A DNA stretch of 63,308 nt, filler included. It is 4 parts of 4 records of this genome, joined end to end, with 100 filler letters (N's around TTAATTAATTAA, not from the genome) between each part and the next. Parts side by side here need not be neighbours in the genome. Positions count along the whole stretch, not along the records: positions 1 to 21,374 come from SRR31156797_1480; 3 more parts are not named here. One strand, written 5' to 3'. Both the position numbers and the translations under genes were made by a program. Of the stretch, positions 3 through 58,212 are shown one piece after another. The notes below the pieces were generated by a model. The model was not told the DNA's origin. It did not search any database and saw only the letters and a program-made list of their open reading frames with translations. Every line of letters starts with the position of its first letter. The stretch's first letter is position 1.

Positions 3-1241
3 ATTCAAAGTGTTCTGAACAAGGCTTATCCTCAGCGCCAAATCCTCCAGGCTCCCCAATGACCCCAACGGCTTGGTCTTGTTATCCATCTTGCTGATTG
101 CTTCGGCCCTGATATCATCCGACAGGGGGCCAATGGCTTCAAGGACATCTTCAAACCCTCGAAATTCATGGTCGGCCATGGGTTCATTTTCAGCATTCAT
201 TTTCAATAACGCCGACGGTTTGCCCCCGAAAATTTCCGGACCCGCATTTCCCGGGGAAAAGCTTACGCCATTTTCCTTGCCGCCAAAATCAATGACATAT
301 TTGAGCGCTTTTCCCGTAAGGATATCCGGCATTAATGCCGCAGCCCTTTGGGGGGGGATGATTTCCTCAATCAACTTTTCAAAGGATGGGGCCATTTTTC
401 CAATCAGATTGAGACCGTCCCGCATATTTTTTCGGGTTAGGCCATAGGCCCCTGAAACGGTCATCTCTTTGTAATGCATCAGGTTAAGGAGGTTCGTCTC
501 CAGGGTCTTATTCTTGGTCAGCCCCCCAAAAAAGGAGAGTCGGCCGCCTTTGGCCAGTTTTGCGACGCACATGCTGAAAGCCGTAGGGTCCGCGCACGCG
601 TTCAGCGCCATATGGAATTCACTCTCGGGGGTCTCCTTCCGGAGCCTGATGTTCAGGGCCCGCTGAAATTCCGCTGAACGCTCGATCTTTTTCTCATCCT
701 TTTCAATGACCAGCGGGATAACCCCCAGCTCCCGGCATGCCAGGGCCGCCATCAACCCCACGCTCCCCCCCCCATAGATGATAATCCGCTCACCTTTCCG
801 GGGTTGAAGGGGCTCCAGGGCGTTTAGCACGCAGCCGGCCGGTTCCGCCAAAGAGGCCACGGGGAGAGGGATATGATCATCAACCGGAATCATGCTTTCC
901 TGAGGGGTCATGACATGGCTGGAAAAGCCCCCGTCATGGTGAAACCCCATGATCTTCATCTGCTCGCAAAGGTTCTCCCGCCCGCTCAGACAGAAATTGC
1001 AATGGCCGCAGGTTCTTCCGGGCCATATGGCGAATCTTTTGCCATTGTCTCCTTCAGCGATGAGTTCATGCCCCAATACCCTCGGCAAAACCAGATCCCG
1101 GTGACCCTCGTTCCACATCTTGGCATCTGTTCGGCATATGGCGCAGTATTGCACCTTCAGAAGCCGAAACCCCTCTTCAGGACCATGGGTTTCCGCCTCC
1201 TTCATTTCCAGTTTTTTCAATCCGGTCAGCAGCAGTCTCAT
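3..1241 (-). CDS. cobT: Fusion of a Zn-dependent medium-chain dehydrogenase (MDR, threonine/sorbitol dehydrogenase-like) with the N-terminus of nicotinate-nucleotide:DMB phosphoribosyltransferase CobT; runs off the window edge
   Basis: Manual translation from ATG 1241 (MRLLLTGLKKLEM...) gives CAICRTD, GHE, CGHCNFCLSGRENLC and GGGSVG (MDR Zn and NAD motifs), then in the same open frame KMDNKTKPLGSLGSLEDLA (CobT N-terminal signature). Absent from the ORF track because there is no stop codon inside the window. Confidence 0.85.
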   Translation of the reverse strand, partial: MRLLLTGLKKLEMKEAETHGPEEGFRLLKVQYCAICRTDAKMWNEGHRDLVLPRVLGHELIAEGDNGKRFAIWPGRTCGHCNFCLSGRENLCEQMKIMGFHHDGGFSSHVMTPQESMIPVDDHIPLPVASLAEPAGCVLNALEPLQPRKGERIIIYGGGSVGLMAALACRELGVIPLVIEKDEKKIERSAEFQRALNIRLRKETPESEFHMALNACADPTAFSMCVAKLAKGGRLSFFGGLTKNKTLETNLLNLMHYKEMTVSGAYGLTRKNMRDGLNLIGKMAPSFEKLIEEIIPPQRAAALMPDILTGKALKYVIDFGGKENGVSFSPGNAGPEIFGGKPSALLKMNAENEPMADHEFRGFEDVLEAIGPLSDDIRAEAISKMDNKTKPLGSLGSLEDLALRISLVQNTLN

Positions 1242-1245
1242 GTTC

Positions 1246-2361
1246 TTAATGGGACCCCGCTTTGGTCAGCGCCCACAATCTTCTGACGCCCTCTTCCGGA
1301 TCTCGATTCTGAATCTTCACCCAGTTCTCAAGCGTATTAAAAGCCGACCCCTCTTTCAAGAGCGAACATGCCTTCATGACACCTTCCTTGATGGAAGGGA
1401 CACTTCCCGCCACATGGAATATCAGCCCTGCATTCAGGGCTACGGCCTCAAAACGGGCTCCGGTTTTTTCACCCCGCAACAACGCTACAAAATCCCTGGC
1501 TTCCCGATCCATATCCGGAACGGGCGTAAGGTCGGATGGATTACAGGTATTGAGGCCATAATCCTCCGGACGGAAATCATATTCCGCTATTTCGCCATCC
1601 GCCTTCAACTCCGCACAATAGGTCCTGCCGCAGACCGATGCTTCATCCATACCTTTTAAGGCGTTATCGATACTGCCGTAAAGAACCAGGGCCCTCTCAT
1701 ATCCAATGGCTTTCATCACCCTGGCCACCGGCATGATCATCTCCCTTGAATAGACCCCCCTGACCCCGATTCTGGGCATGGCGGGGTTCGCGAGAGAAGC
1801 GGCGATGTTAAGGGTTGAGCCGAAATGGATGTTGGAAAGTATCCGTCCAAGGGCCTGGGGATGGATCTCGGCGCTCATACCGTTAAACAGCCCGATACCG
1901 GCCTCGTTAATACTCTCGGCAACCACATCGGCGCTGCACTCCACATCAACTCCCAGGGTCTCGGCCATGTCAACGGTCCCGCATGGGGAGGTAATGGCCC
2001 GCGCCCCGTGCCGGGCCATGCGGATACCGCCTGAAGCCGCAATGATGGAGGCGGCCGTACTGATGTTGAAGGTCTTGAAGGAATCCATGCCCGTGCCGCA
2101 GTTCTCAACAATGGGCCCGGGGTCATTGGATGCAATTTTCACCGTATCAAGCTCGTAGATGGCCTCCCAGCTTCCCGCAACCTCCTCTTCCGTTTCACCT
2201 TTTGCGGTCATGGCCGCCAGAAACGCCCCCTGCTGCATATCGGTTGTTTCATTCTTCAGGATCGTGTAAAAGGCGCCTTTCGCTTCCTCCCTGGAAAGGT
2301 CCTCCTTTTGAACCAGCCGTGTTATCAAACCCCCAAAAGCCTTATTCATTGCCGTTTCCAT
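1246..2361 (-). CDS. Anthranilate phosphoribosyltransferase-family (TrpD-like) protein with divergent motifs
   Basis: QQGAFLAAMTAKGET, CGTGMD-FKTFNISTAAS, RHGAR, GMDEAS and VALNAG match the TrpD fold; strong GGAGG RBS. Not in a trp operon. Confidence 0.85.
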   Translation of the reverse strand: METAMNKAFGGLITRLVQKEDLSREEAKGAFYTILKNETTDMQQGAFLAAMTAKGETEEEVAGSWEAIYELDTVKIASNDPGPIVENCGTGMDSFKTFNISTAASIIAASGGIRMARHGARAITSPCGTVDMAETLGVDVECSADVVAESINEAGIGLFNGMSAEIHPQALGRILSNIHFGSTLNIAASLANPAMPRIGVRGVYSREMIMPVARVMKAIGYERALVLYGSIDNALKGMDEASVCGRTYCAELKADGEIAEYDFRPEDYGLNTCNPSDLTPVPDMDREARDFVALLRGEKTGARFEAVALNAGLIFHVAGSVPSIKEGVMKACSLLKEGSAFNTLENWVKIQNRDPEEGVRRLWALTKAGSH

Positions 2362-2631
2362 GCCTCCTCCTTTCCTTGATTCAGTATTATTCTGAATAAA
2401 GGGCCGTCAAAACATGGTGAATAGAGATTCACCCGAGAGAAGAAAAAAAGGATATGCAGTGCGTCTAATGGAAGAGACCGATACCGGGTAGAAATACCTT
2501 AGGGGGAAGAGCGTTCTGTTTGATATGCCCGGATGCTGCATGCACTTATACCCTTTTAGTCATTCATAACGGTTCTGATGACCACAAAAGATATGGATAG
2601 CATCCAGCTGGGATATCCGGAAGTTTTTAAC

Positions 2632-2810
2632 GACAGGCAGGCTTTCTGGCTTAAGGATCAATCTACCGACCGCGCCTTCCCGGTCTCCCAGTGGCATATT
2701 GCGGCTTTCGTCCCCTTACACAGCAATGGCTGGTTTGCGATGGACTCTCACCATCTTTCCTTTTAACATCACATAATCGGTTCCATCCGGCTATGCGATA
2801 CACCTGTGTC
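2632..2810 (-). ncRNA. Cobalamin riboswitch
   Basis: Minus strand reads AGGTG...TTAAAAGGAAAGATGGTGAGAGTCCATCGC...GCCACTGGGAGACCGGGAAGGC...AAGCCAGAAAGCCTGCC, the B12-box and core elements; lies upstream of a cobT-containing operon. Confidence 0.88.
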
Positions 2811-3050
2811 AGGTAAACAAATATATGCCGGCGGAAAAAATGTCAATTATATTTTTTTGTTTTCCGGCTTCTTTCTCTCCATTTTCACGGTTGGCAAGAA
2901 TCCTTTTGTCAGAAAACAATCAATTTTGCCGTCAAACATTCGGTCCTACGAAGCGTCTTTTCGATTCGGATCAAATATTGCGTGTCGACTCCAACAAGCT
3001 AATCCTGTAGAATGAACGCCACTGAAAATCGTAAAAAAAGGAGATATGGA

Positions 3051-4499
3051 ATGTATGATGTCATTATCAAAAACGCCCGCATCCCCCAGGGTGACGAAAC
3101 CCGCAAGACCAACATTCTGGTTCAAGATGAAAAGATTGCCGGATTCATGGACAGTCTCGACGGCATTGAAGGAAAAGAAACAATAGATGCCGAAGGGCAT
3201 TTGACACTGCCGGGCTGCATCGATTCCCATACCCATATCATGGATCCCGGATTTACCCACCGGGAGAATTTCCTGACCGGAACGTCGGCTGCGGCCAGCG
3301 GGGGAATCACCACCATCATCGATATGCCCTGCTGTTCAAAACCTTCAGTCAGGAGCGTGGAGCAACTGCACAACAAGATCCACAAGATCAAGGATAAGGC
3401 CATGGTTGATTTCGCCTCCTGGGGCGGCGTAACCGGGGAGGATGTGAGGGAAGGCTGGCTGCATCATGTTCAGGAACAGGTGGAAGCAGGGGTCGTCGCT
3501 TTTAAGGTCTACATGACGCCGTCGGTCCCCACCTACCCGAAGGTCACGGATCCGGAAATGCTCCAATGTTTCAGAACGGTGGCCAAAACCGGCCTCCCCG
3601 TGGGGGTCCACGCCGAAAATTACGATATATGCGACTTCTATGTGAAGAAACTTGAGAAAGAAGGTCGTACGGACGGCCCGGCCTGGTCCGAGGCAAGAAT
3701 GACCCTGGCCGAAAAAGCGGCCATTGAACTCTGTATCTCCTTTTCGGAAGACACCGGATGCAGAATGCACATCGTCCACATGAGCACCGGCATCGGCGGG
3801 CTGCTGATCGGTGAAGCGAAAAAGAGAGGGCTTGACGTAACGGCCGAGGTCTGTCCCCATTACCTCACGTTGAATGCACCGGAACATATGGGAGAATTCA
3901 GGCAATTCGCCAAGATCGCCCCGCCGCTTAGAAGCAAAAAAGACAATCAGGTCATGTGGGACTGCCTTGCCGATGGCAGAATCGATTTTGTGGCCACCGA
4001 CCATGCCCCCTATGAGATCGCCACCGAGAAGCCCGACCATATCTGGCATTCTTTCCCCGGTATTCCCGGCGTGGAAACCATGGCGCCCGTCATCATCAGT
4101 GAAGGTTACAACAAAGGGAGGCTGCCCCTTAGCAGACTGGTTGAGGTATTATCCGAATTTCCGGCCAAACACTACGGGCTTTACCCGAAAAAAGGATCCA
4201 TGTTCATGGGAGCGGATGCGGATTTTACCATCTTCGACCTTGAAAAAGAATGGACCATCGACAAGGACAAAATGGTTACCATGGCCAAGTACAGCCCTTT
4301 TCACGGCTACAAGCTGAAAGGGAAACCCTTTAAAACCATTGTCCGGGGTAAGGTCGTATATGACCATAGGGAAGGTCTGGTGGGCGTGCAGGGTTATGGA
4401 CAGTTTGTCAAAAGGCAGCGCATTCAGAAATTGGAGAAAAGAATTGCCTACCGGCAGAAATACACGGATCCGCTGGATATTCATCTGGCCCTGCGTTAG
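3051..4499 (+). CDS. Cyclic amidohydrolase (allantoinase/dihydroorotase family)
   Basis: PGCIDSHTH, AAASGGITT, FKVYM, HAEN, HIVHMS and TDHAP binuclear-metal motifs. The ATG at 3051 follows GGAG; the ORF track starts at 3012. Confidence 0.9.
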   Translation: MYDVIIKNARIPQGDETRKTNILVQDEKIAGFMDSLDGIEGKETIDAEGHLTLPGCIDSHTHIMDPGFTHRENFLTGTSAAASGGITTIIDMPCCSKPSVRSVEQLHNKIHKIKDKAMVDFASWGGVTGEDVREGWLHHVQEQVEAGVVAFKVYMTPSVPTYPKVTDPEMLQCFRTVAKTGLPVGVHAENYDICDFYVKKLEKEGRTDGPAWSEARMTLAEKAAIELCISFSEDTGCRMHIVHMSTGIGGLLIGEAKKRGLDVTAEVCPHYLTLNAPEHMGEFRQFAKIAPPLRSKKDNQVMWDCLADGRIDFVATDHAPYEIATEKPDHIWHSFPGIPGVETMAPVIISEGYNKGRLPLSRLVEVLSEFPAKHYGLYPKKGSMFMGADADFTIFDLEKEWTIDKDKMVTMAKYSPFHGYKLKGKPFKTIVRGKVVYDHREGLVGVQGYGQFVKRQRIQKLEKRIAYRQKYTDPLDIHLALR

Positions 4500-4557
4500 G
4501 ATCATCTTCGGCAAACAGCCGGGGAACCGTGAAAAGCAAGAAATCATTCCACTTTGA

Positions 4558-6048
4558 GTGGGCGACGGGACAAAACCATTGAAAAGCCTCAGAGACTATA
4601 TTAAAGAACTGAATGAAATTGGAGAGATTCAGGAAATTGACCGTGAAGTGGACTGGAACCTGGAAATAGGGGGCATTATCAAACGCTCCTATGACCTGGG
4701 GGCGCCGGCACCCCTGTTCAACCGGATCAAGGGCATTGAACCGGGATTCCGAGTGCTCGGAGCACCGGCGGGAATGAGCCGTCAGAAAGGCCTGGCCTTT
4801 GCCCGGGTGGCCCTATCCTTGGGAATGTCACCCCGTGCCGATGGACCCGAGATCGTGGATGCACTTTCCAGAACATGGGAGAGGAAATTCATCCCCCCGG
4901 AAATCGTTGGGAAAGGTCCGTGCAAGGAGAATATACAGACAGGTAAAAACGTGGACCTTTACAGGCTTCCGGCCCCCTTTATTCATAAGGATGACGGCGG
5001 CAGATACCTGAACACCTGGGGAATCGTCATTGTTAGGACGCCTGACCGGAAATGGACCAACTGGTCCATCAACAGGGTCATGATCACAGGCAGGAATACA
5101 CTGACCGGCACCGGTTTTAAAGGACAGCACCTGGGGGTCATCTTCAATCAGTGGAAAGAAAAAAACACCCCCATGCCCTTTGCCGTCGCCATGGGGGTCG
5201 ACCCCGCAATCCCCTTTGTGGGCGGCATGCCGATTCCCGAGGGCGTCTCCGAACCCGACTTTATGGGCGGATACCTGGGGGAACCCGTCAACGTCATTGA
5301 CTGCGAGACCGTTGACATACAGGTTCCCGCCGGTTCGGAGATCGTCATCGAAGGAACCATAGACCCGGATAAGGAGATGGAAGAAGGCCCCATGGGAGAA
5401 TATACCGGGTATATTTCCAAAGGCGGGTCTTCCCTTGAGCCGCTTTACGACGTATCAGCCATCACCCACAGAAATGCCCCGATCCTTCCCGTGGTGGCCG
5501 CGGGAGAGCCCGTTGAGGAAAACCATACCTGCTGGGGAATCGGCATCGCGGCCCAGGCGACGGCGGAATTGAGAAAACACGATTTTCCCGTGGCAAGGTG
5601 CTTCATCCCCTTGGAATCGGCAGTGCACTGGTTGGTGGTTACGGTGAACAGGTCGTCCGGGAGCAAATTCTCCGGAAAAGAACTGGTGCAAAAGCTGGCG
5701 GAGATCTTTTTCCCATCCAAAGCCGGCGTTTTGCTGTCAAAGGTGCTCTTGGTGGACGACGACATTGATCCCGGCAACATCAACGAGGTGGTATGGGCCT
5801 TTGCCGGCAGGTCCCATCCTGAACAGGGGCAGTTTCTGTTTCCGGATCTGGCCCCTTTTCCACTGCAGTTGTTCGTAACCCCTGAAGAAAAGGCCTCCCG
5901 GAAATCCACCAAGGTCATCTACAACTGCCTGTATCCGGACCATCTTAAAGGAAAACGAATTCCCCAAAGACTCTCCCTGGAAAATCTGTGCGGAGAATCC
6001 GTGAAGAAAAAGATTCTGGCCAATTGGCACAAATACGGTTACAAATAG
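4558..6048 (+). CDS. UbiD-family prFMN-dependent decarboxylase, HudA/Fdc1-like clade
   Basis: EIGGI..R, APAPLFN, DGGRY, EGPMGEYTGY, EENHTCWG, VDDDID and VIYNCLYP. The true start may be TTG 4579. Confidence 0.92.
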   Translation: MGDGTKPLKSLRDYIKELNEIGEIQEIDREVDWNLEIGGIIKRSYDLGAPAPLFNRIKGIEPGFRVLGAPAGMSRQKGLAFARVALSLGMSPRADGPEIVDALSRTWERKFIPPEIVGKGPCKENIQTGKNVDLYRLPAPFIHKDDGGRYLNTWGIVIVRTPDRKWTNWSINRVMITGRNTLTGTGFKGQHLGVIFNQWKEKNTPMPFAVAMGVDPAIPFVGGMPIPEGVSEPDFMGGYLGEPVNVIDCETVDIQVPAGSEIVIEGTIDPDKEMEEGPMGEYTGYISKGGSSLEPLYDVSAITHRNAPILPVVAAGEPVEENHTCWGIGIAAQATAELRKHDFPVARCFIPLESAVHWLVVTVNRSSGSKFSGKELVQKLAEIFFPSKAGVLLSKVLLVDDDIDPGNINEVVWAFAGRSHPEQGQFLFPDLAPFPLQLFVTPEEKASRKSTKVIYNCLYPDHLKGKRIPQRLSLENLCGESVKKKILANWHKYGYK

Positions 6049-6078
6049 GTTAAAAAAGCCAAGCTACCAAGGAACAGG

Positions 6079-6762
6079 ATGAACGAAATGAAAGGCCCCA
6101 CCGATCGTGAAATTTCCCTTGAAATTCTTTCCCCCCAGTCCCGGGCCACTGCGGTGGTGGTTCAGACGGTTTCTCCGGAAAGATCCCATGAATTTCTGGA
6201 ATGGCAGCGGGGGATCACTCGGGATGCCTCTCTTCACCCGGGTTACAAATATACGGAGATCTACCAGCCGGCGCCGGGCCCCAGGGCCGAGTGGGTGACG
6301 GTGGTCCACTTCGAAAGCAATTCCCTGTTGGAAGCCTGGATCAAATCCCCTGTTCGTAGGAAATGGGTGGAGGATTTCAGGACGCGGTTTGGAGACTTCA
6401 CACTGAAACGTACCGGTGGCTTTGATGCATGGTTTTCGGACGTGGACGGCGAAAATGAAAAGATTCCCGATTGGAAAATGGTCCTTTCCGTGGTGACGGC
6501 GCTCTACCCCACCGTCATGGTCCTGACCTATTGGCTGCTGACCCCGTTTCTCAAACCGCTCCCCTTTGCGGCGCAGATGCTCATGGGAAATATCGCCAGC
6601 GTTGCATTTCTGCAATGGGTTGCCATGCCCCTGCTGACGCGGCGCCTTTCGTTCTGGCTTCGGCCCACAAAAACCACCGGTTTGGGGATCACCCTTGCAG
6701 GACTTGCCGGGATACTGGTAAGTCTAGCCTTGATGCTCTGGCTTTTCACCTCAGTCGGCTAG
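6079..6762 (+). CDS. Antibiotic biosynthesis monooxygenase (ABM)-like domain with C-terminal membrane helices
   Basis: EFLEWQ..I...PGY and VHFES..LEAWIKSPVRRKW, followed by P-x-WKM...LYP and about three hydrophobic segments. Confidence 0.75.
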   Translation: MNEMKGPTDREISLEILSPQSRATAVVVQTVSPERSHEFLEWQRGITRDASLHPGYKYTEIYQPAPGPRAEWVTVVHFESNSLLEAWIKSPVRRKWVEDFRTRFGDFTLKRTGGFDAWFSDVDGENEKIPDWKMVLSVVTALYPTVMVLTYWLLTPFLKPLPFAAQMLMGNIASVAFLQWVAMPLLTRRLSFWLRPTKTTGLGITLAGLAGILVSLALMLWLFTSVG

Positions 6763-6850
6763 GATTTTCCGGCTCGTGGAATTCCAGGAAAATGTACCCC
6801 GTAACTTAAAAACCCAACGGAAAACCAGGCAATAAGAAAGGAACAGCATA

Positions 6851-7417
6851 ATGACCCACGATGAATTGATTGCAGAAGCATGCCGACTGGCCAAGGAGTC
6901 CGTTGACAACAATTGGGGCGGCCCCTTTGGCGCGGTCATTGCCAGAGACGGGGAGATTATCGCCCGGGGCCAGAACCGGGTGCTGCTCACGGGAGACATC
7001 ACGGCCCACGCCGAGGTTGAAGCCATCCGCAAAGCCGCACGCGTCATCAACCCCTATTCCCCCTCCATCAGTCCCACCAACCAGAACAAATCGACCCTTC
7101 AGTTCGTGCCGCGCCCGGAAGGGTCACCCGACCCCGTGCCAGAGCGCGCCAGGATGCTCATGGGGCATGAGATTTTCATCAGCGGCGCCCCCTGCCCCAT
7201 GTGCATGAGCGCCATTTACTGGGCCCGGATCGATGCGGTGTACTTTGCCTGCGACCTGGAAGATACCCGGAAAATCGGTTTTGACGACGCTTTTCAGTAT
7301 GAGGATTTTGCCCTGCCCCTGGACCAGCGTCGCATCAAGATCAAGCAATATCGTCAGGATCTGGGCCTTAAAGCCTATGAGGCGTGGACCGACAAGAAGG
7401 ACCGGCACTTTTATTAA
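6851..7417 (+). CDS. Nucleoside/guanine deaminase (CDA fold, GuaD-like)
   Basis: GGPFGAVI, HAEVEAIR, PCPMC Zn motif and GFDD; carries an extra Pro-rich insertion between HAE and PCPMC. Confidence 0.88.
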   Translation: MTHDELIAEACRLAKESVDNNWGGPFGAVIARDGEIIARGQNRVLLTGDITAHAEVEAIRKAARVINPYSPSISPTNQNKSTLQFVPRPEGSPDPVPERARMLMGHEIFISGAPCPMCMSAIYWARIDAVYFACDLEDTRKIGFDDAFQYEDFALPLDQRRIKIKQYRQDLGLKAYEAWTDKKDRHFY

Positions 7418-7449
7418 CCATCAGGAGAAGAGACCGCCGTCGAAACACC

Positions 7450-8019
7450 ATGGATGAATTGAAAAAAAGGATTCAAAAGGATGGCCGCGTCCTCAACGAC
7501 CATGTGCTAAAGGTCGACGGTTTTCTGAATCACCAGATCGATGTTCACCTCATGGACCGGATGGGTCGCGCCATTTTCCATCATTTCCATGAATACGGCA
7601 TCACAAAAATTCTGACCGTCGAAACATCGGGAATCGCCGTGGCCTGTTCGGTGGCCCGATGCTTTCATGTGCCACTTGTTTTCGCCCGCAAAACGCCCAC
7701 CCTGACATCGGTTGATGATCAATACACTGCCGAAATCTTTTCCTTCACCCAACAAAAAAAGTTCACCATCACGGTCAGTAAACGGTTTCTTTCGTCCCAT
7801 GACAAGGTATTGTTGGTGGACGACTTTCTGGCCCGTGGTCAGGCTTTGATGGGCCTTATCAACATTGTCCATCAGTCCGGCGCCACACCGGCCGGGGCGG
7901 GAATTGTCATTGAAAAGGCCTTTCAGGATGGTGGAAAACGGGTGAGGAACCAAGGGGTTGAAGTCTATTCTCTCACCCGTATCTCATCCCTTGAAAATGG
8001 GCAAGTGCTTTTTTCGTGA
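7450..8019 (+). CDS. xpt: Xanthine phosphoribosyltransferase
   Basis: VLKVDGFLNHQID, ILTVETSGIA, VFARK and LLVDDFLARG; 189 aa from ATG 7450. Confidence 0.92.
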   Translation: MDELKKRIQKDGRVLNDHVLKVDGFLNHQIDVHLMDRMGRAIFHHFHEYGITKILTVETSGIAVACSVARCFHVPLVFARKTPTLTSVDDQYTAEIFSFTQQKKFTITVSKRFLSSHDKVLLVDDFLARGQALMGLINIVHQSGATPAGAGIVIEKAFQDGGKRVRNQGVEVYSLTRISSLENGQVLFS

Positions 8020-10807: not shown

Positions 10808-12382
10808 CTATGCCGCAGCCGCCTGAATTTTTTCAATGTCGAGGATAAGGGAAATATCGCCGTTTTCCATAATGCCCACGCCGGCAAAAAGCCCTGTCTT
10901 GGCCAGCAATTCTCCCAAGGGGATGGCCATGAGCGGCATATTACCGAGAATCGCGTCCGCCGCAATGCTCAAACCGCCATCTTGGGACGATGGCATGTTG
11001 GAAACGGCGGACTGCCGCAGTTTTATGATATGGCCTTTAACGTTGATTTCAGGATCTATGCGCAAAAGATTTCTGAGATCACAGAACTGCGAGACTTTTC
11101 GGGGGTCGTCAGGATCCTCATTTTCAATGGCATGAACATGGGATGTGGGAATGGCCAGGATATATTTCCCAAGCCTGAACAAAACCGCGTAGATAATAGA
11201 AAGAGAAAGGGGGAGGCCTATGATAAACCGGGTTCCCATTGAAGGCTCGGAATGGATCTTCATGGTGCCGCCCAGATATTCGATGGCCTGGGCAATGACA
11301 TTCATACCGATCCCTCTACCCGCCAGCTGGGTGGTCTCTCCGGCGGAAGAAAAATCCGGCCGGCAGATAATGTTCAGGAGCTTCTCGTTTGAAAACGCGC
11401 TCATCTCCTCACGGCCCATGCCCATCTTTTCTTCAAGGTACGCACCGATGGCCTCACGGTCCAGGCCCCGGCCGTCGTCACTAACCGTCAGTATTAGTTG
11501 ATCCCCGCGCCGTTCGGCTCTCAGAACGATTTTCCCTGTCGCGGCTTTGCCGGCCTTTTCCCGTTCATGGGACGGCTCGATACCATGGGCAACGGCATTC
11601 CGCAACAGGTGCATAAACGGCTCTCTCAATCGATCCAACAAGCCGATATCCACTTCAATTTCGCCCCCCTCAATTTCAAGCTTAACATCCCGGTTATGGG
11701 ATTTCGCCAGATCGCGTACGGTCTTTACAAACAGATCTCCAAAATCCTGAACCGGCATGAGCCTGAGCTGGGCCAGCTGGAAATAGAGGCCTTTGAGCAT
11801 GGAAATATAATGATTGATCCAGCTTCCGAGACCCGCGGACATCTGAGCCTGCGTCAAGGGCGGGAGTGTCTTTTCAAGCAGCATGATTTCCTGGGAGCGG
11901 GCCAGAAGCGATTCAATCAAGCCATAATCCACCCGTATGCGATCTATTTTGGCGGGGGCGACAGTTTGCCGTATTTCCGGCTCGGCCCGATCCACCAATG
12001 ACTCAGGATCTTTTGCCAGATCTTCCGTTATGGACCGCAAACTTTCCAGTTCCAGGGGCCCGCTGATCTCGCCCTTGCCCGCCACAAAAGATTTCAGCAG
12101 TTCCGTGCCGTCAAAAAACAATTGAACAACCCGCTCATTGGGGATTTTGGCACCCTCCTGAAACCACTTGCACCACGTCTCCATGGCATGGCAAAAGGTG
12201 GCCAGATCCATCATGCTGAGGGCTCTGGCCATCCCCTTCACGGAATGAATTTTCCCGTGAATCTCACCCCACAACTGTTGGTCAGATAGGTCTTTTTCCA
12301 CCCTGAGCAAGACAGCATCCAACTCATCAAGATATTTGCTCGATTCCTGGATGAAAATTTTCCAGTATTTTTCAAGCTCCAT
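10808..12382 (-). CDS. cheA: CheA-type chemotaxis histidine kinase (Hpt, dimerisation, HATPase, CheW)
   Basis: IHSVKGMA Hpt motif, HLLRNAVAHGIE, DDGRG, GRGIGM and a C-terminal CheW-like domain. Confidence 0.92.
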   Translation of the reverse strand: MELEKYWKIFIQESSKYLDELDAVLLRVEKDLSDQQLWGEIHGKIHSVKGMARALSMMDLATFCHAMETWCKWFQEGAKIPNERVVQLFFDGTELLKSFVAGKGEISGPLELESLRSITEDLAKDPESLVDRAEPEIRQTVAPAKIDRIRVDYGLIESLLARSQEIMLLEKTLPPLTQAQMSAGLGSWINHYISMLKGLYFQLAQLRLMPVQDFGDLFVKTVRDLAKSHNRDVKLEIEGGEIEVDIGLLDRLREPFMHLLRNAVAHGIEPSHEREKAGKAATGKIVLRAERRGDQLILTVSDDGRGLDREAIGAYLEEKMGMGREEMSAFSNEKLLNIICRPDFSSAGETTQLAGRGIGMNVIAQAIEYLGGTMKIHSEPSMGTRFIIGLPLSLSIIYAVLFRLGKYILAIPTSHVHAIENEDPDDPRKVSQFCDLRNLLRIDPEINVKGHIIKLRQSAVSNMPSSQDGGLSIAADAILGNMPLMAIPLGELLAKTGLFAGVGIMENGDISLILDIEKIQAAAA

Positions 12383-21374: not shown

Positions 21375-21474
21375 NNNNNNNNNNNNNNNNNNNNNNNNNN
21401 NNNNNNNNNNNNNNNNNNTTAATTAATTAANNNNNNNNNNNNNNNNNNNNNNNNNNNNNNNNNNNNNNNNNNNN
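21375..21474. other. Artificial contig spacer (N run with TTAATTAATTAA linker)
   Basis: Seen directly; base composition changes abruptly across it. Confidence 0.99.
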
Positions 21475-52110: not shown

Positions 52111-52240
52111 CAGCTAGGCAATTGAATTATTGAGAGATGGAAAAACAATTTTCATCTCTTTTTTTATTCTATAAGTAGATTTTAAGCTCTGATATTCTAA
52201 ACCTACTGATATTTCCAAAATATTACATAGCTTTGCAACA

Positions 52241-52352
52241 ATTAGGTTTCCTCATGTTGGAATGAAAAGGGAATCTGGTGTAAAACCGGAACTGTCCCCG
52301 CAGCCGTAATCTTTCTTGTGATTATATGAAAGTAAGTCGGAATACCTGCCTG
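52241..52352 (+). ncRNA. Cobalamin riboswitch (short form)
   Basis: AGGTT...AAAAGGGAATCTGGTGTAAAACCGGAACTGTCCCCGCAGCCGTAA...AAGTCGGAATACCTGCC; TAGCTTTG promoter just upstream. Confidence 0.9.
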
Positions 52353-52445
52353 AAAAAATAAACTGTTTCGTAACTTCGGGGAACTGAGTAACGAAGGTAT
52401 AATTTTGTGAATTGTATTTTCTAGTCAACCTTCCCCACAATTATT

Positions 52446-53639
52446 GTGGAAGAAATGAATTTAGTAAGATCTTTAAGTGTTGGAATTCTATTTTTCAGCC
52501 TTCTATGGAGTTCTGCCTGTCAATCGGGAGATTCCAAACAGAAGAAAGAAACACTTTCTCAGGAATTAACTGTTGATTCCTCCTTTTATCATCAATCTGA
52601 TATTAAGTATGCCAAAGGCTTTCAAATAAAAATCCTGCAAAAAGGAGTAAAAGAGTTAATTGTTTGGGATCCTTGGAATCCAGGCAAAGTGTTTCAGAAA
52701 TACTACCTGAAGAATCGAGGAGAGAAAATTCAAGTTGATTTACCTAAGGATGGTCTTGTTATTGAAGTTCCGGTAAAAAGTATTGCAGCACTTTCAAGTA
52801 CACAGATAGGTATTTTAAAATTTCTTGGTGTTGATGATAAAATTGTAGCCGTCTCCTTAAAGGATAGAATATACGATGAAGATATAGATCGAAAGGTAAA
52901 GGCAGGAGATATTCAAGCTGTTGGTCATGCTGAAACTTTAAATTTTGAGAAAATTCTTGAGATTGATCCTGATTTGGTAATGGTTGCTGGATTTATGAAG
53001 GTTACCGAGAGAGAAAGCAAATTGATGCATGCAGGTTTGCCTGTGGCATACAATATTGAATGGATGGAATCTTCTCCTTTGGCTCGTGCCGAATGGGCTA
53101 AGTTTATTGCAGCTTTTTTTAATAAAGAAACCGAAGCTGAAAAACATTTTAACGAGATCGATTCAAGGTACAATCAGCTAAAATCGTTAGTTAAAACAGT
53201 TGCTAATGAACCAAGTATCCTTTCGGGATACAATTTTAAAGGTGTTTGGTATATGCCTGGAGGACAATCGTATCTGGCACAGTTTTTACGCGATGGGAAA
53301 GCGGATTATTGCTGGTTTTCGGATAGTTCAAGTGGTAGTATTCCGTTAAGTTTCGAGGTGGTATTCGACAAGCAAAGTGAGGCGGACATTTGGTTTGGAC
53401 CAGGTCAGTGTAGAACTATTGAAGATTTGAACGGATTAGATGAGCGATACGCATTGTTTAAATCATATAAAACCAAGGAAGTTTATTGTTATACTAAACG
53501 CATGAAGGAAAGTGGAGCAAATGACTGGTATGAATCAGGAGTGATGCAACCAGATGTTGTTTTTAAAGATGTGATCAAGATATTGCATCCGGAAATTCTC
53601 CCTGATTATGAATTGCACTTTTATCAAAAACTGAAATAG
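52446..53639 (+). CDS. Cobalamin/iron-chelate ABC substrate-binding lipoprotein (BtuF-like) 1
   Basis: Lipobox SSAC, EKILEIDPDLV, WMESSPLARAEW and IKILHPE; riboswitch-controlled. Confidence 0.88.
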   Translation: MEEMNLVRSLSVGILFFSLLWSSACQSGDSKQKKETLSQELTVDSSFYHQSDIKYAKGFQIKILQKGVKELIVWDPWNPGKVFQKYYLKNRGEKIQVDLPKDGLVIEVPVKSIAALSSTQIGILKFLGVDDKIVAVSLKDRIYDEDIDRKVKAGDIQAVGHAETLNFEKILEIDPDLVMVAGFMKVTERESKLMHAGLPVAYNIEWMESSPLARAEWAKFIAAFFNKETEAEKHFNEIDSRYNQLKSLVKTVANEPSILSGYNFKGVWYMPGGQSYLAQFLRDGKADYCWFSDSSSGSIPLSFEVVFDKQSEADIWFGPGQCRTIEDLNGLDERYALFKSYKTKEVYCYTKRMKESGANDWYESGVMQPDVVFKDVIKILHPEILPDYELHFYQKLK

Positions 53640-53646
53640 TAGAAGT

Positions 53647-54702
53647 ATGATAACGAGAAAAAGTGGTCAGCTTGTTTCTATCTTATTTGGAGCTCTGATT
53701 GTAATTATAGTGGGTGTTTTTCTTTTGGATTTGATTTTTGGGTCGGTTAGCATTCCATTTCGAAAGGTGTTTACTATACTTTTTGGTGGCGATGTTAAAG
53801 CATCCTGGAATTATATTGTTTTGAATTTTAGATTGCCTAAGGCACTTACTGCAATTTTTGTTGGTGCTGGTTTGTCAGTTACTGGACTTATGATGCAAAC
53901 CTTATTTAGAAATCCACTCGCTGGTCCGTTTGTATTGGGAATAAGTTCGGGAGCTAGTCTTGGAGTTGCTCTAATGGTAATGGCTTCGGCTATTGTTCCA
54001 GCATTTTTTGGAACAATTTCGGCACTTTTGGGGAGTTGGGCTTTAGTGGTTGCAGCAGTGGCTGGTGCCTCATTGGTGTTTCTATTAGTTGCTTTAGCTT
54101 CAATTCGCATATCCGATAGTGTTTCTCTTTTAATTATAGGAATCATGTTTGGAAGTATTACTGGAGCAGTGGTAAATATTCTTCAGTATTTTAGTGATCC
54201 GGAGCAAATTCAGAGCTTTATTGTTTGGACATTTGGTTCATTAGCAGGTGTTACCTGGAACGAAATGCAAGTGATGGGACCAATTGTTTTTGTTGGACTG
54301 ATAATGGCGTTTTTGTTAATAAAACCTATGGATGCCTTATTATTAGGAGAGAATTATGCAAGAGGTGTGGGAATATCAGTTAATAGAATAAGAATTGCAG
54401 TAATTATTAGCACCGCTTTAATTGCAGGAACCTTAACAGCATTTACAGGTCCAATTGCTTTTGTAGGTGTAGCTGTACCTCATATTGCTCGCGCCATATT
54501 CAGAACAGCAAGTCATAAGGTATTAATGCCAGCTGTAGTTTTAATTGGTGCAGCCATCATGTTGTCTTGTGATATTATTTCACAAATTCCAGGGAATCAA
54601 AATACATTGCCTATCAATTCTGTAACTGCATTGTTTGGAGGACCGGTTGTTATTTGGGTAATCATGAGGAGTAGAAATGTTAAGGCATCTTTTGCAGGAT
54701 AG
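53647..54702 (+). CDS. btuC: FecCD/BtuC-family ABC permease
   Basis: RLPKAL, MQTLFRNPLAGP.VLGISSGA and GPIAFVGVAVPH. Confidence 0.9.
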   Translation: MITRKSGQLVSILFGALIVIIVGVFLLDLIFGSVSIPFRKVFTILFGGDVKASWNYIVLNFRLPKALTAIFVGAGLSVTGLMMQTLFRNPLAGPFVLGISSGASLGVALMVMASAIVPAFFGTISALLGSWALVVAAVAGASLVFLLVALASIRISDSVSLLIIGIMFGSITGAVVNILQYFSDPEQIQSFIVWTFGSLAGVTWNEMQVMGPIVFVGLIMAFLLIKPMDALLLGENYARGVGISVNRIRIAVIISTALIAGTLTAFTGPIAFVGVAVPHIARAIFRTASHKVLMPAVVLIGAAIMLSCDIISQIPGNQNTLPINSVTALFGGPVVIWVIMRSRNVKASFAG

Positions 54703-54710
54703 AGGGATTT

Positions 54711-55742
54711 ATGAAAGAAAGAAAAGAAAATCAAGATATACTGGTCACACAAGATCTTTCCATTGGTTACAAGCAAGGGAAAAAAGAGACCTTGTGCTTA
54801 CTCTCTAATATTGATTTAACCATCAGAAGAGGAGAAATGGTTTGTCTGTTGGGACCCAATGGAGCGGGAAAATCTACTTTAATGAGAACCATTGCAGGAA
54901 TTCAACCTCCGCTTGCGGGTTGCACTTTAGTTGAAGGAATCTCAATAAAGGATAGAAATTTTAAAGAGATTGCTCAGTTATTGAGTATTGTCTTAACTGA
55001 GAGAATCAACGTTGGAAATCTTACTGTTTATCACATTGTTTCTTTAGGACGTCACCCTTATACCTCCTGGATGGGGAAATTGTCCCAAGAAGATAATGAT
55101 AAGATAAAATGGGCTTTGGAACAGGTTGGACTGTTACACTATGCAAATCATTTTATTAATCAGCTGAGTGATGGAGAAAGACAAAGGGTAATGATTGCAA
55201 AAGCTTTGGCTCAGGATACGCCTTTAATAATGCTAGATGAACCAACTGCACATCTAGACTTACCAAATCGTGTTGAAATAATGCGCCTCTTACATCGCCT
55301 GGCAAGAGAGACGAATAAAGCTATTCTCTTGTCAACTCATGAATTGGATTTGGCATTGCAAGCTGCGGATGTTATTTGGTTGATGGCAAGAAATGAGCCG
55401 GTTAAAGTTGGTGCTCCCGAAGATTTAGTTTTAAACGGTAGTATTGAAGATACATTTCATAACAAGTCCTTCAATTTCGATCGCAAGACAGGGAATTTTA
55501 TCATGAATTATCAGAAAAAACAAAGCATCCAGCTTTTGGGTAATGATGTGATGGGATTCTGGACTCAACGGGCTTTATCACGTGAAGGTTATCAGGTAAG
55601 TTGCGAAAAAGTTGGCGATTGTTGTGTGAATTTATTGGAAGATACTATGGAGTGGGAAATTCAACAAAATGGCTCTACGATTAAATGCACTAGCATTCAG
55701 GAATTATTATTACATCTACGCAGTAACCTGACAAAATCCTAA
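54711..55742 (+). CDS. btuD: ABC ATPase (BtuD/FecE-like)
   Basis: GPNGAGKST, LSDGERQR, LDEPTAHLD and STHEL. Confidence 0.9.
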   Translation: MKERKENQDILVTQDLSIGYKQGKKETLCLLSNIDLTIRRGEMVCLLGPNGAGKSTLMRTIAGIQPPLAGCTLVEGISIKDRNFKEIAQLLSIVLTERINVGNLTVYHIVSLGRHPYTSWMGKLSQEDNDKIKWALEQVGLLHYANHFINQLSDGERQRVMIAKALAQDTPLIMLDEPTAHLDLPNRVEIMRLLHRLARETNKAILLSTHELDLALQAADVIWLMARNEPVKVGAPEDLVLNGSIEDTFHNKSFNFDRKTGNFIMNYQKKQSIQLLGNDVMGFWTQRALSREGYQVSCEKVGDCCVNLLEDTMEWEIQQNGSTIKCTSIQELLLHLRSNLTKS

Positions 55743-55755
55743 TATTATCTAAATC

Positions 55756-56934
55756 ATGCAGAGAATACTACTGGTACTTTTTGTGTTGGGCTTAGTTGGC
55801 TGTTGGTCTAATGAAAGCAAAGTGCGAAGCAGAATTGATAAGGTTGAAGATCAAACTGACTTTGCTTTTACAAGTAAGGTAAATTATGCCATTGGTTTTA
55901 ATATCGAGATGAAAAATGGCTATAAGGAGATAAAGGTATTTAATCCTTGGAAAAATGATGAGATCTTAAGAAAATATGCACTTGTACCAAGAGGAAAAGT
56001 TGTACCTGCTGAAGTGAGTAAGAGTCATGTTGTGGTTAATGTTCCAGTAAAAACTGTAGCTCTATTTTCGAATACTCATGTGGGACCAATTGTAAAGTTA
56101 GGACTCGAGGATAATGTGGTTGGAATGACCAGAGCCAGAAAAGTTTTTAATGAAAAACTATTTGCTAAAGTTGAAAGCGGAAAGATCCTAAATTTAGGAG
56201 GAGCTCACAATAAAAATATTGATATAGAAACCATTGTAGATTTGAATCCTGATTTGATTATACTTTCGGCTTATAATGAGGTTAAATCTGGCGAAGCACA
56301 ATTGGAAGAAATCGGATTAAAGTTGGCTTATTCAATTAATTGGATGGAATCCACACCATTGGCAAGAGCTGAATGGATGAAATTTACTGCAGCTTTTTTT
56401 AATAAAGAGAGTCTAGCTGATTCAATGTTTACTGAAATTGAAAATAACTATAACAAGCTTAAATCAAGAGTTGCAAAAGTGAAGCAAAAGCAAGATGTAT
56501 TGCTTGGGTGGAGCTATAAAGGAACATGGTTTATGCCGGGTGGACGAAATTATATGGTTAGCTATTTAAGGGATGCTGGAGCCAATTATTTTCTTTATGA
56601 TGATGAATCAAGAGGAAATATTCCAATGAGCGTAGAATCTGTTTTAGAATCTTGTAATAATACCGACGTTTGGATATATCCTGGCGTTTGTAAAAGTTTG
56701 AATGATATTGAAAATGGAGGTGAAATTTTCACTCAATTTAAGCCATTTAAGCAAAAGGAAATATATAATATATACAAAAGAACCAATGTTACAGGAGGAA
56801 GTGATTGGTGGGAAAGAGGAAGTGTAAATCCTGATGTAGCCTTAAAAGATTTTATTAAGATTTTGCATCCCGAATTGTTACCTAATGATACCACTTACTT
56901 CTTTAGTAAGCTTCACTTTTTGAATAAAAAATAA
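55756..56934 (+). CDS. Cobalamin/iron-chelate ABC substrate-binding lipoprotein (BtuF-like) 2
   Basis: Lipobox LVGC, WMESTPLARAEW, WFMPGG and IKILHPE; paralog of 52446-53639. Confidence 0.88.
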   Translation: MQRILLVLFVLGLVGCWSNESKVRSRIDKVEDQTDFAFTSKVNYAIGFNIEMKNGYKEIKVFNPWKNDEILRKYALVPRGKVVPAEVSKSHVVVNVPVKTVALFSNTHVGPIVKLGLEDNVVGMTRARKVFNEKLFAKVESGKILNLGGAHNKNIDIETIVDLNPDLIILSAYNEVKSGEAQLEEIGLKLAYSINWMESTPLARAEWMKFTAAFFNKESLADSMFTEIENNYNKLKSRVAKVKQKQDVLLGWSYKGTWFMPGGRNYMVSYLRDAGANYFLYDDESRGNIPMSVESVLESCNNTDVWIYPGVCKSLNDIENGGEIFTQFKPFKQKEIYNIYKRTNVTGGSDWWERGSVNPDVALKDFIKILHPELLPNDTTYFFSKLHFLNKK

Positions 56935-57029
56935 AATTCTCTTCGTAGGTTCAGATTGTTAATATGTAATTGAGAAAAAAGCTTGCGATTTTTTATTGTA
57001 TAATTAAAAAATGTATACATTTGCTACGC

Positions 57030-57208
57030 ATTTGGTTTTTCACACTCATCATTCGATTGTGAAAATGAAAAGGGAATCCGGTGAAAATCCGGAACTATAC
57101 CCGTAGCTGTAAGTTCTAAAAAAAGCTTTTTGAATGACCTATTGCCACTGTTTCGATTAATTGAAATGGGAAGGCCTCAAAAAGTAGAACAAGTCAGAAG
57201 ACCTGCCT
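57030..57208 (+). ncRNA. Cobalamin riboswitch (long form)
   Basis: TGGTT...AAAAGGGAATCCGGTGAAAATCCGGAACTATACCCGTAGCTGTAA...GCCACTG...TGGGAAGGC...AAGTCAGAAGACCTGCC; TACATTTG promoter upstream. Confidence 0.93.
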
Positions 57209-57386
57209 TTGCGAATATTTTAAGTCATTGCTTTCGGGAAAAAGAGCAAGTGAACGAAAACTTTTCACAAAGAGTATTAGGATTGATTTGCCATAACTGG
57301 TCCTTAATTCTTCATGTTAGATTTTTCTTTTCGCTCCCTGATTGCATGCATTAGTTAAACTTATTTTCATTTTATTCTTAAAAGAC

Positions 57387-58112
57387 ATGAAAAGAACATT
57401 TTTAACAGCTTTTGCATTGCTATCATTATTGAACACTGCAGTTAAAGCTGATGAAATTCCAAATCCGACAAACGACACAACGGCGGTACGACATTTAAAT
57501 CTGTCGGAGGTAAAGATCAATGCATCACGTGTAAATGCTAAAATGAAGGATCTTCCTCAAAAAATTGAGGTGATTTCGGCTCGACGTATTTCTTCAACAC
57601 CTGCTAATGATGTTGCAGAGTTATTAAAGAAAAGTTCTGGTATCGATATTGTTCAATATCCAGGAGTAAAAGCTGCCATAGGTATGCGCGGATTTTCACC
57701 ATCAACCTCAAATAAATACAATGTTATTTTGCTTAATGGGAGACCTGTAGGAACAGAAAATATTGCTACTTTGAATTTAGCAAATGTAGAGCGCGTTGAA
57801 ATTATGAAAGGACCTTTTTCATCTCTATATGGTTCCGATGCAATGGCTGGTGTTATCAATATCATTACCAAAAAATCTGATGGTGAGATAGGTGGTAATG
57901 TTTCTTTTGCCTATGGAAGCTTTCAAACAACTGATATAATTGCGAATGTTGGTGGTGATTTATCCGATAAATTTTCATTTGATTTCGCCTACAGCAGACA
58001 TCAACAAAATAAAGACTACAAAATAGGTGACAATAATTTCACTTATACTTCAAAGTTAGAGGAATCTATTATTTCGGAAGATACTTATGGTGAAAGAATG
58101 GAGAATACGAAG
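57387..58112 (+). CDS. btuB: TonB-dependent receptor, BtuB-like (3' truncated by gap)
   Basis: Signal peptide; plug motifs IGMRGF, ILLNGRP and VERVEIMKGPFSSLYGSDAMAGVINIITK; lies behind a B12 riboswitch. Confidence 0.85.
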
Positions 58113-58212
58113 NNNNNNNNNNNNNNNNNNNNNNNNNNNNNNNNNNNNNNNNNNNNTTAATTAATTAANNNNNNNNNNNNNNNNNNNNNNNNNNNNNNNN
58201 NNNNNNNNNNNN
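58113..58212. other. Artificial contig spacer
   Basis: N run with TTAATTAATTAA linker. Confidence 0.99.

Follow-up and report, generated by a model that had tools for sequence, protein, structure and literature searches.

The window analysed here is a stretch of 63,308 nt in which contigs are joined end to end, and the first of these contigs begins with a minus-strand module: a cobalamin riboswitch, a gene for a paralogue of anthranilate phosphoribosyltransferase (TrpD), and a gene for a zinc-dependent dehydrogenase of the medium-chain dehydrogenase/reductase (MDR) family that runs on into the start of CobT (Table 1). The pairing recurs in hundreds of anaerobic bacteria. We propose, at a probability of roughly 0.5, that this riboswitch-repressed bicistronic operon represents a branch, so far undescribed, of the metabolism of the cobamide lower ligand or nucleotide loop. 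That the module belongs to cobamide metabolism in some capacity is highly probable, and the chance that it supplies the base, as opposed to providing the ribosyl donor, opening another route of activation or serving salvage, appears to us about even. Recruitment of a TrpD paralogue to B12 lower-ligand or nucleotide-loop metabolism was the core of an original prediction on this DNA, and comparative genomics sustains it as a hypothesis through the riboswitch, the fusion and the linkage to cob operons.

The same prediction had placed a cobalamin riboswitch at 2632-2810 on the minus strand, a TrpD-fold gene downstream of it, and a dehydrogenase::CobT fusion behind that gene. The first two were recovered: Rfam matched the cobalamin model over its full length, above the gathering score of 31.5 bits and with a slightly wider extent, and the TrpD-fold gene carries both Pfam domains of the family and passes the NCBIfam trpD model TIGR01245. 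The fusion is likewise real. Its single frame, its TKPLGSLGSLE motif and the short gap to the preceding gene were as described; the contig includes only the tip of CobT, and the complete domain was found in a relative.

The aptamer lies on the same strand as the TrpD-like gene, with 258 nt from its end to the start codon (ATG, 2361). Within the intervening leader, a consensus scan picked out a weak terminator-like hairpin (2433-2416, 7 pairs) with a T-rich tail, and a sequence resembling a ribosome-binding site, GGAGGAGG, stands directly before the ATG. Single-sequence folding of the leader was not distinctive (z -1.5) and did not tell termination apart from occlusion of the ribosome-binding site. 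The operon is predicted to be repressed by cobalamin by way of this riboswitch.

The TrpD-like protein matched Glycos_transf_3 (PF00591, E 2e-51) and Glycos_trans_3N (PF02885, E 3.2e-16) in Pfam, and TrpD structures in the PDB with a best E of 5.5e-47. Models for the phosphorylases that act on thymidine and AMP gave weak NCBIfam matches of at most 53 bits. More than 2,600 protein matches were returned, the best being proteins of 'Deltaproteobacteria' metagenome-assembled genomes (MAGs) that are 85-92% identical, followed by a broad Desulfobacteraceae set at 58-70% identity.

The ATG of the second gene, at 1241, is 4 nt past the TrpD-like stop codon, and a single frame of 413 aa continues from it until it exits the contig at base 3. 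The CobT tip of this frame also matches NF000996 and TIGR03160. In L004 (genome G005), the closest relative with a complete copy and one whose TrpD-like protein is 88% identical, the fusion is 711 aa long and its DBI_PRT domain is complete at 423 bits; that domain matches CobT in the PDB with an E of 7e-73 and retains LGEGTGA, of which we take the Glu to be the catalytic base of CobT. Fused CobT domains shared 41-46% identity with the stand-alone CobTs encoded alongside them in these genomes. A quick CobT tree put the seven stand-alone CobTs on one side with 25% branch support and the fused ones on long branches, with a wrongly cut sequence (L048) as an outlier, and from this comparison we used only the identity values.

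Across 14 aligned sequences of the dehydrogenase, the invariant residues comprise C36, H58, E59 and E133, the cysteines C78/C81/C84/C92, the glycines of G157-x-G159-x-x-G162, and E180. Alignment to PDB 8wwd confirmed that the zinc ligands, both catalytic and structural, are present together with the Rossmann GxGxxG motif, and the acidic E180 occupies what we understand to be the position that usually marks use of NAD over NADP. The family has an invariant signature of its own, C-x-x-C-R-T-D-A-K-M-W...G-H-R-D-L...P-R-V-x-G-H-E, and the basic invariants around the catalytic residues (R37, K41, R48, R54 and R88) form a set that suits a putative phosphorylated substrate. The enzyme falls far under the cut-off of every named equivalog in NCBIfam, the best being L-threonine 3-dehydrogenase (TIGR00692, 92.7 against 380 bits), with NF003808 at 84.3 against 458; its best PDB match, at 96.9 bits, is an unnamed zinc alcohol dehydrogenase. 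A profile search returned 856 cluster representatives at E <=1e-30, and the best 150 of these were mostly stand-alone proteins of about 320-350 aa with a few fusions of about 700 aa. A complex prediction for the TrpD-like protein and the dehydrogenase, run with alignments unused, scored 0.00 against a mark of 0.34, a value that says nothing either way on binding.

Conservation was assessed in a scan of relatives limited to one genome per species, in which at least 516 relatives were confirmed among at least 600 pattern-matching stretches; counts over 80 loci refer to the best 80 of those at least 516, and 81 neighbourhoods were clustered. The dehydrogenase homologue lies directly downstream of the TrpD-like gene in 79 of the 80 loci, the exception being a contig that ends inside the TrpD-like gene. 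A CobT N-terminus follows the dehydrogenase in 65 loci, and in 62 of these both sit in one stop-to-stop frame of 690-780 aa. Clustering of the open reading frames (ORFs) in the 81 neighbourhoods left only the TrpD-like and dehydrogenase families as conserved, with 81 and 77 occurrences, and the next family had 19. Of the 77 loci that had at least 400 nt of upstream sequence, 67 gave a same-strand match to an nhmmer profile built from eight riboswitches, ending under 600 nt upstream of the TrpD-like gene. Rfam, applied to seven loci, found the riboswitch directly upstream in four (L004, L021, L044 and L050) and 4.3 kb upstream, before btuB, in L027; by the same means none was found in L018 or L052.

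Some variants of the module stood out among these loci. A subclade of Desulfobacterium, Desulfocicer and Desulfamplus MAGs and isolates (L012-L016, L018, L019 and L022) has no riboswitch detected within 21 kb, and an Rfam re-check of L013, L015 and L018 was empty; it retains the TrpD-like gene, a small ORF and the dehydrogenase::CobT fusion. Carriers of the module in culture include Desulfocicer vacuolatum DSM 3385, Desulfospira joergensenii DSM 10085, Desulfobacula phenolica and Desulfopila sp. IMCC35008. This small ORF, about 67 aa long with the consensus MELLIIKSG..YIRVKD..Y..V.LDKASVFP... and no Pfam family, is found between the TrpD-like gene and the fusion in 63 of the 80 loci (e.g. L021, ~11100-11300) and might form a third part of the module. 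It is absent from the window and from L001-L006, where the two genes are 4 nt apart. The fusion frame of L048 (11153-13951) is 932 aa, some 200 aa longer than the others, suggesting an extra C-terminal part. In L072 (11355-12545), L028 and L059 the dehydrogenase and CobT are in different frames, and in L072 the dehydrogenase itself is split across three; these are frameshifted or decaying copies, or assembly errors.

Two Bacteroidota place the pair inside recognisable cobamide operons. L027 reads riboswitch, btuB-like receptor, PKD protein, TrpD-like gene, dehydrogenase::CobT, cobU, cobT, cobS, cobC, cobQ and cbiB, and L052 reads cbiJ, cobA, TrpD-like gene, dehydrogenase::CobT, cobT and cobQ. 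Among four distant members, with 41-51% identity, three have the reversed order of dehydrogenase and then TrpD-like gene, in one case followed by a stand-alone CobT, and the fourth locus ends 150 nt beyond the TrpD-like gene. Two of the three reversed loci (L120 and L123) have an upstream riboswitch according to Rfam. The pair therefore outlasts fusion, fission and inversion of gene order, which is strong evidence of functional coupling.

The sequence of the TrpD-like protein departs from TrpD in the motifs characteristic of that enzyme. We aligned 14 clade members with five canonical TrpDs and then extended the counts to all 81 members. The canonical GTGGD (5/5) is GTGMD in 80 of 81 members including the window copy, a count with some circularity, since GTGMD was among the patterns used to retrieve the loci; the methionine, M92, is also invariant in 14 homologues retrieved by word. 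KHGNR (5/5) has become RHG[A/S]R in every one of the 81, the window copy having RHGA, and GSAD (5/5) has become GTVD in 80. The column of the anthranilate-binding Arg (SsArg164/MtArg193/TkArg159) holds Leu in the 14 aligned members, with an invariant Arg two residues before it, beside a two-residue deletion. FNIST, HG, NPA and the metal-binding DE pair are retained, D239 and E240 being invariant. In TrpD, according to the available text of PMC5537072, the GTGGD loop binds PRPP (5-phosphoribosyl pyrophosphate), the Lys of KHGN contacts anthranilate while HGN contacts PRPP, and the Arg is essential for anthranilate. A FastTree phylogeny gathered the 81 members into one group, and the branch between this group and the five canonical copies measured 3.2 substitutions per site.

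All 10 related genomes examined have two matches to TIGR01245, a canonical copy at 306-429 bits and the module copy at 225-260 bits, and in the two that were checked (G001 and G005) the canonical copy lies within trpE-trpG-trpD-trpC(F). The window protein is 31-34% identical to these canonical TrpDs, and no trp genes were found near the TrpD-like gene in the 81 clustered neighbourhoods. We are accordingly confident that the gene does not encode the housekeeping TrpD. Two further expectations of the original prediction were thus borne out among relatives: a canonical trpD exists apart from the module copy (10/10, a check made in relatives of the window's genome), and homologues keep the riboswitch (67/77) and the cobT neighbourhood, as fusions (62/65) and within the cob operons of two Bacteroidota.

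We also surveyed the carrier genomes for other lower-ligand genes; these genomes are mostly MAGs or drafts, so that absences of ThiC, CobT and BluB are soft. A second, lower-scoring paralogue of the ThiC family occurs in six of the 10 (G001, G002, G003, G004, G005 and G009). It adjoins a stand-alone cobT in G001, G002, G004 and G005, in a bzaF-cobT-like arrangement, and lies apart from it in G003 and G009. These paralogues, putative BzaF enzymes, score as ThiC and fall under the BzaB cut-off. The bzaF-cobT-like pairs are at L101, L103, L105 and L106 (G001 and G004) and at the matching places in G002 and G005, and in G005 the cobT beside the ThiC paralogue is split in two pieces. G006 and G007 gave no match for a ThiC-family gene, and G008 and G010 gave one each; in the latter two genomes the fused CobT is the only CobT found. 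BluB had no match over the cut-off in any of the five genomes searched for it, G006-G010. Since the module is present both with (6/10) and without (4/10) a second ThiC paralogue, it does not simply substitute for BzaF and does not depend on it either.

On the reading that we prefer, in which the pair serves lower-ligand or nucleotide-loop metabolism, scarcity of cobamide would allow the riboswitch to permit expression of the operon. The TrpD paralogue, having kept the class IV phosphoribosyltransferase scaffold and the DE pair around a rebuilt acceptor pocket, would move 5-phosphoribosyl from PRPP onto a nitrogen nucleophile that is not anthranilate, for instance an N-heterocycle or a neutral aromatic amine. 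The NAD-type dehydrogenase would then oxidise or otherwise process the phosphosugar adduct, or a base derived from it, and the product would pass to the fused CobT domain for conversion to the alpha-ribotide, which CobS attaches to the corrinoid. Such a hand-over to CobT would have a precedent in BluB/CobT2 of Propionibacterium freudenreichii, in which, by the portion of PMC4657239 available, a lower-base synthase is fused to CobT.

A more specific version, which we regard as speculative and unlikely, makes the pair a third route to the lower base that is independent of oxygen and of radical S-adenosylmethionine (SAM) chemistry. Here an ortho-substituted amine, aromatic or heteroaromatic, would be N-phosphoribosylated by the TrpD paralogue, and the MDR enzyme, which resembles aldose 1-dehydrogenases, would oxidise C1' of the ribosylamine. 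The ring would then close and the rest of the sugar be lost, so that ribose C1' became C2 of a new imidazole ring, following the carbon logic of BluB without O2, and the resulting benzimidazole- or purine-type base would be handed straight to the fused CobT. Such a route, if real, could explain lower ligands of unassigned origin. These include benzimidazole, purine and 5-methylbenzimidazole, the last reported from Desulfobacterium and Desulfobulbus. The producers of 5-methylbenzimidazole are not named in the available text of PMC4230183 or PMC11321594.

Several observations weigh against the lower-ligand reading. The TrpD-like protein passes TIGR01245 at 248.2 bits against a cut-off of 199.05, and every source name met for its homologues is 'anthranilate phosphoribosyltransferase'. 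The invariant Arg near the lost one could still bind a carboxylate, and use of PRPP by the protein is not certain because the Asn of HGN, assigned to PRPP binding in the accessible part of PMC5537072, is replaced by Ala. On this contig CobT is cut off after its N-terminal tip. Even the closest relatives (L001, L002 and L005) include unfused dehydrogenases, of 323-343 aa, so that the core is the pair of TrpD-like protein and dehydrogenase, with CobT fusion frequent but optional. Ten of the 77 loci, L027 among them, have no riboswitch immediately upstream. In an even sample of 201 genomes from the phylum of G001, the eight with a clade member all have CobT compared with 145 of 201 overall, which, given the 72% background, is a weak enrichment. 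An additional supply of base is not obviously needed where a second ThiC paralogue exists, as in 6/10 genomes, and no source of the acceptor amine is evident.

The TrpD paralogue might instead make the beta-ribotide donor that CobT consumes, either nicotinate mononucleotide from nicotinate and PRPP or another pyridinium-type ribotide. The leaving group of CobT would thereby be recycled, the path from alpha-PRPP through a beta-donor to the alpha-ribotide would be a double inversion, and the dehydrogenase would be an accessory. This proposal draws on the tie between a PRPP-type transferase and CobT, by operon and, via the dehydrogenase, by fusion; moreover, nicotinate and anthranilate are both aromatic carboxylates, and an invariant Arg persists near the carboxylate-binding Arg that was lost. 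We nevertheless consider it unlikely. A nicotinate phosphoribosyltransferase family member (PF04095) is encoded in eight of the 10 module-carrying genomes and would already cover nicotinate recycling in most of them, which weakens such a role for the TrpD paralogue. The best-conserved partner, the dehydrogenase, is left without a function, and the pair persists without an adjacent CobT in L002, L005 and L050. The changes in the pocket (K to R, N to A, R to L and G to M) also strip basic or polar residues.

The loci with a two-gene core under a riboswitch and no adjacent CobT (L002, L005, L050 and L123) raise the alternative that activation of the base bypasses CobT. The TrpD paralogue would N-ribosylate the lower base from PRPP to a beta-ribotide, and the dehydrogenase, with tightly bound NAD, would transiently oxidise a sugar hydroxyl and in this way invert C1' to yield the alpha-ribotide, the fused CobT serving only to broaden the range of bases. 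E180 at an NAD-type position and the basic invariants of the dehydrogenase suit a ribotide substrate of this kind. Yet no carrier genome lacks CobT (10/10 genomes, and 8/8 of those in the phylum sample), the fused copy being the only one found in G008 and G010, and we know of no zinc MDR enzyme that works as an epimerase through transient oxidation. We judge this alternative quite improbable.

A role in salvage or remodelling of cobamides, to which we also give a low probability, would have the TrpD-fold enzyme free the base from a nucleotide or nucleoside, either as a phosphorylase-like activity or as a phosphoribosyltransferase in reverse, before the dehydrogenase altered the base and CobT re-activated it. 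The fold is common to the thymidine and AMP phosphorylases, whose models gave the weak matches above, GTVD may be closer to the phosphorylase-type GGT.D motif than to the GSAD of TrpD, and genes for a xanthine phosphoribosyltransferase and a deaminase of the CDA fold adjoin the module on this contig and in its closest relatives. The TrpD score of 248 bits nonetheless dwarfs the <=53 bits of the phosphorylase models, these purine-salvage neighbours are kept in only three or four close relatives, and a B12-repressed operon is easier to reconcile with supply than with clean-up. Finally, that the gene is an ordinary second anthranilate phosphoribosyltransferase for tryptophan, behind a B12 riboswitch by chance, is very improbable: it passes the TIGR01245 cut-off and databases call it TrpD, but a canonical trpD exists in 10/10 relatives with no trp genes near the module copy, the GTGGD, KHGN and aligned essential Arg are changed throughout the clade, and partner and riboswitch are conserved across phyla and changes of gene order.

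The genes that diverge from the riboswitch on this contig (Table 1) were considered as parts of the module and rejected. The amidohydrolase and the UbiD-family decarboxylase are unique to this contig among the 81 neighbourhoods, and the ABM-like protein, the deaminase and the xanthine phosphoribosyltransferase recur only in three or four close relatives. No ThiC-family gene was found in this contig's neighbourhood or in association with the conserved pair. At the join that ends the contig, GC content falls from ~0.52 to ~0.31; as the join is artificial and the contigs possibly come from different organisms, it is not safe to place features past 21475 in one genome with the module. The low-GC contig has two further cobalamin riboswitches. 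One, at 52227-52367(+) with 73.4 bits, is followed by a BtuF-like binding protein, a FecCD permease, an ABC ATPase and a second binding protein (52446-56934), and the other, at 57016-57223(+) with 101.9 bits, is followed by an ORF of 272 aa (57342-58160) whose sole domain is a TonB-receptor plug, possibly a broken or mis-framed receptor.

Table 1. Coordinates of the module, its neighbours and the join in the 63,308-nt window.
Feature	Coordinates	Strand	Evidence and remarks
CobT (DBI_PRT) N-terminal 43 residues, aa 370-412, cut by contig end	3..134	-	PF02277 positions 1-43 of 329, E 1.4e-6
Low-conservation linker, ~aa 321-369	135..281	-	No domain match; length variable among relatives
Zn-dependent MDR dehydrogenase domain, ~aa 1-320	282..1241	-	ADH_N aa 27-122, ADH_zinc_N aa 161-280
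TrpD-like class IV phosphoribosyltransferase paralogue, 371 aa	1246..2361	-	Pfam, NCBIfam and PDB TrpD matches; motifs GTGMD, RHGA, GTVD, DE
Leader / putative expression platform	2362..2618	-	Consensus scan and sequence
Cobalamin riboswitch aptamer	2619..2822	-	Rfam RF00174, 83.4 bits, E 4.5e-19, model 1-189 of 189
Allantoinase/hydantoinase-like amidohydrolase	3012-4499	+	Divergent from riboswitch
UbiD-family decarboxylase	4558-6048	+	Nearest BagN/FevL, 447 bits vs 1000 cut-off
ABM-like protein, CDA-fold deaminase, xanthine phosphoribosyltransferase	within 3012-8019	+	Xanthine phosphoribosyltransferase 260 vs 177 cut-off bits
Contig bearing the module	1-21374		GC ~0.52; module at contig start
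Artificial linker	21375-21474		N run 21375-21418, TTAATTAATTAA 21419-21430, second N run 21431-21474

Full-text literature searches returned no description of the module, the supplementary tables of PMC8620254 lying outside their coverage; the available text of that paper draws 'trpD' and 'DH', uncommented, in a cobalamin-related variable region of a Chlorobium. The lower ligand determines which organisms can use a given cobamide, and fusion, operon and riboswitch here connect CobT with two enzyme families that have no assigned role in B12 metabolism. Should the pair prove to make or activate a base, a missing step would be added to the textbook pathway, the structures of cobamides could be better predicted from genomes, and a widespread annotation as 'anthranilate phosphoribosyltransferase' would be corrected. 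In the parts available of Shelton et al. (10.1101/342006), the lower ligand is predictable for 58% of predicted producers, the other 42% being without known benzimidazole or phenolic determinants; cobT annotations of >800 aa or <300 aa were discarded, and tandem cobT genes were called arsAB. By that rule, the adjacent dehydrogenase::CobT fusion and cobT of L052 would score as arsAB.

Compared with known systems, the TrpD paralogue shares with TrpD (EC 2.4.2.18; PDB 9ucw, 4hkm, 5noe and 1zvw) the two-domain fold, the Pfam domains and the DE pair, but differs from it in having none of GTGGD, KHGN, GSAD or the aligned Arg, in its zinc-dehydrogenase partner, in its usual riboswitch and in never having trp neighbours. 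The dehydrogenase has the domains, zinc ligands and GxGxxG motif of zinc MDR enzymes such as L-threonine 3-dehydrogenase and the polyol and aldose 1-dehydrogenases, whereas its scores lie under all equivalog cut-offs and its invariant signature is its own. The C-terminal domain of the fusion, as seen in L004, is a full DBI_PRT like that of CobT (PF02277; PDB 1j33 and 1d0s), to which the fusion adds an N-terminal dehydrogenase of ~340 aa and a linker. Loci in which a second cobT follows the fusion, directly in L052 and with cobU between in L027, recall tandem arsAB. Like the bza operons (bzaAB or bzaF, cobT, bzaCDE), which are often preceded by cobalamin riboswitches, the module is riboswitch-controlled and links candidate lower-ligand genes to a dedicated cobT, but it has neither a ThiC-like radical-SAM enzyme nor methyltransferases. 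BluB/CobT2 likewise bears an enzyme domain on the N-terminus of a CobT-type domain within cobamide metabolism; the fused partner in our module is instead a zinc MDR dehydrogenase, rather than the flavin-destroying BluB, and it is accompanied by a separate TrpD-like enzyme.

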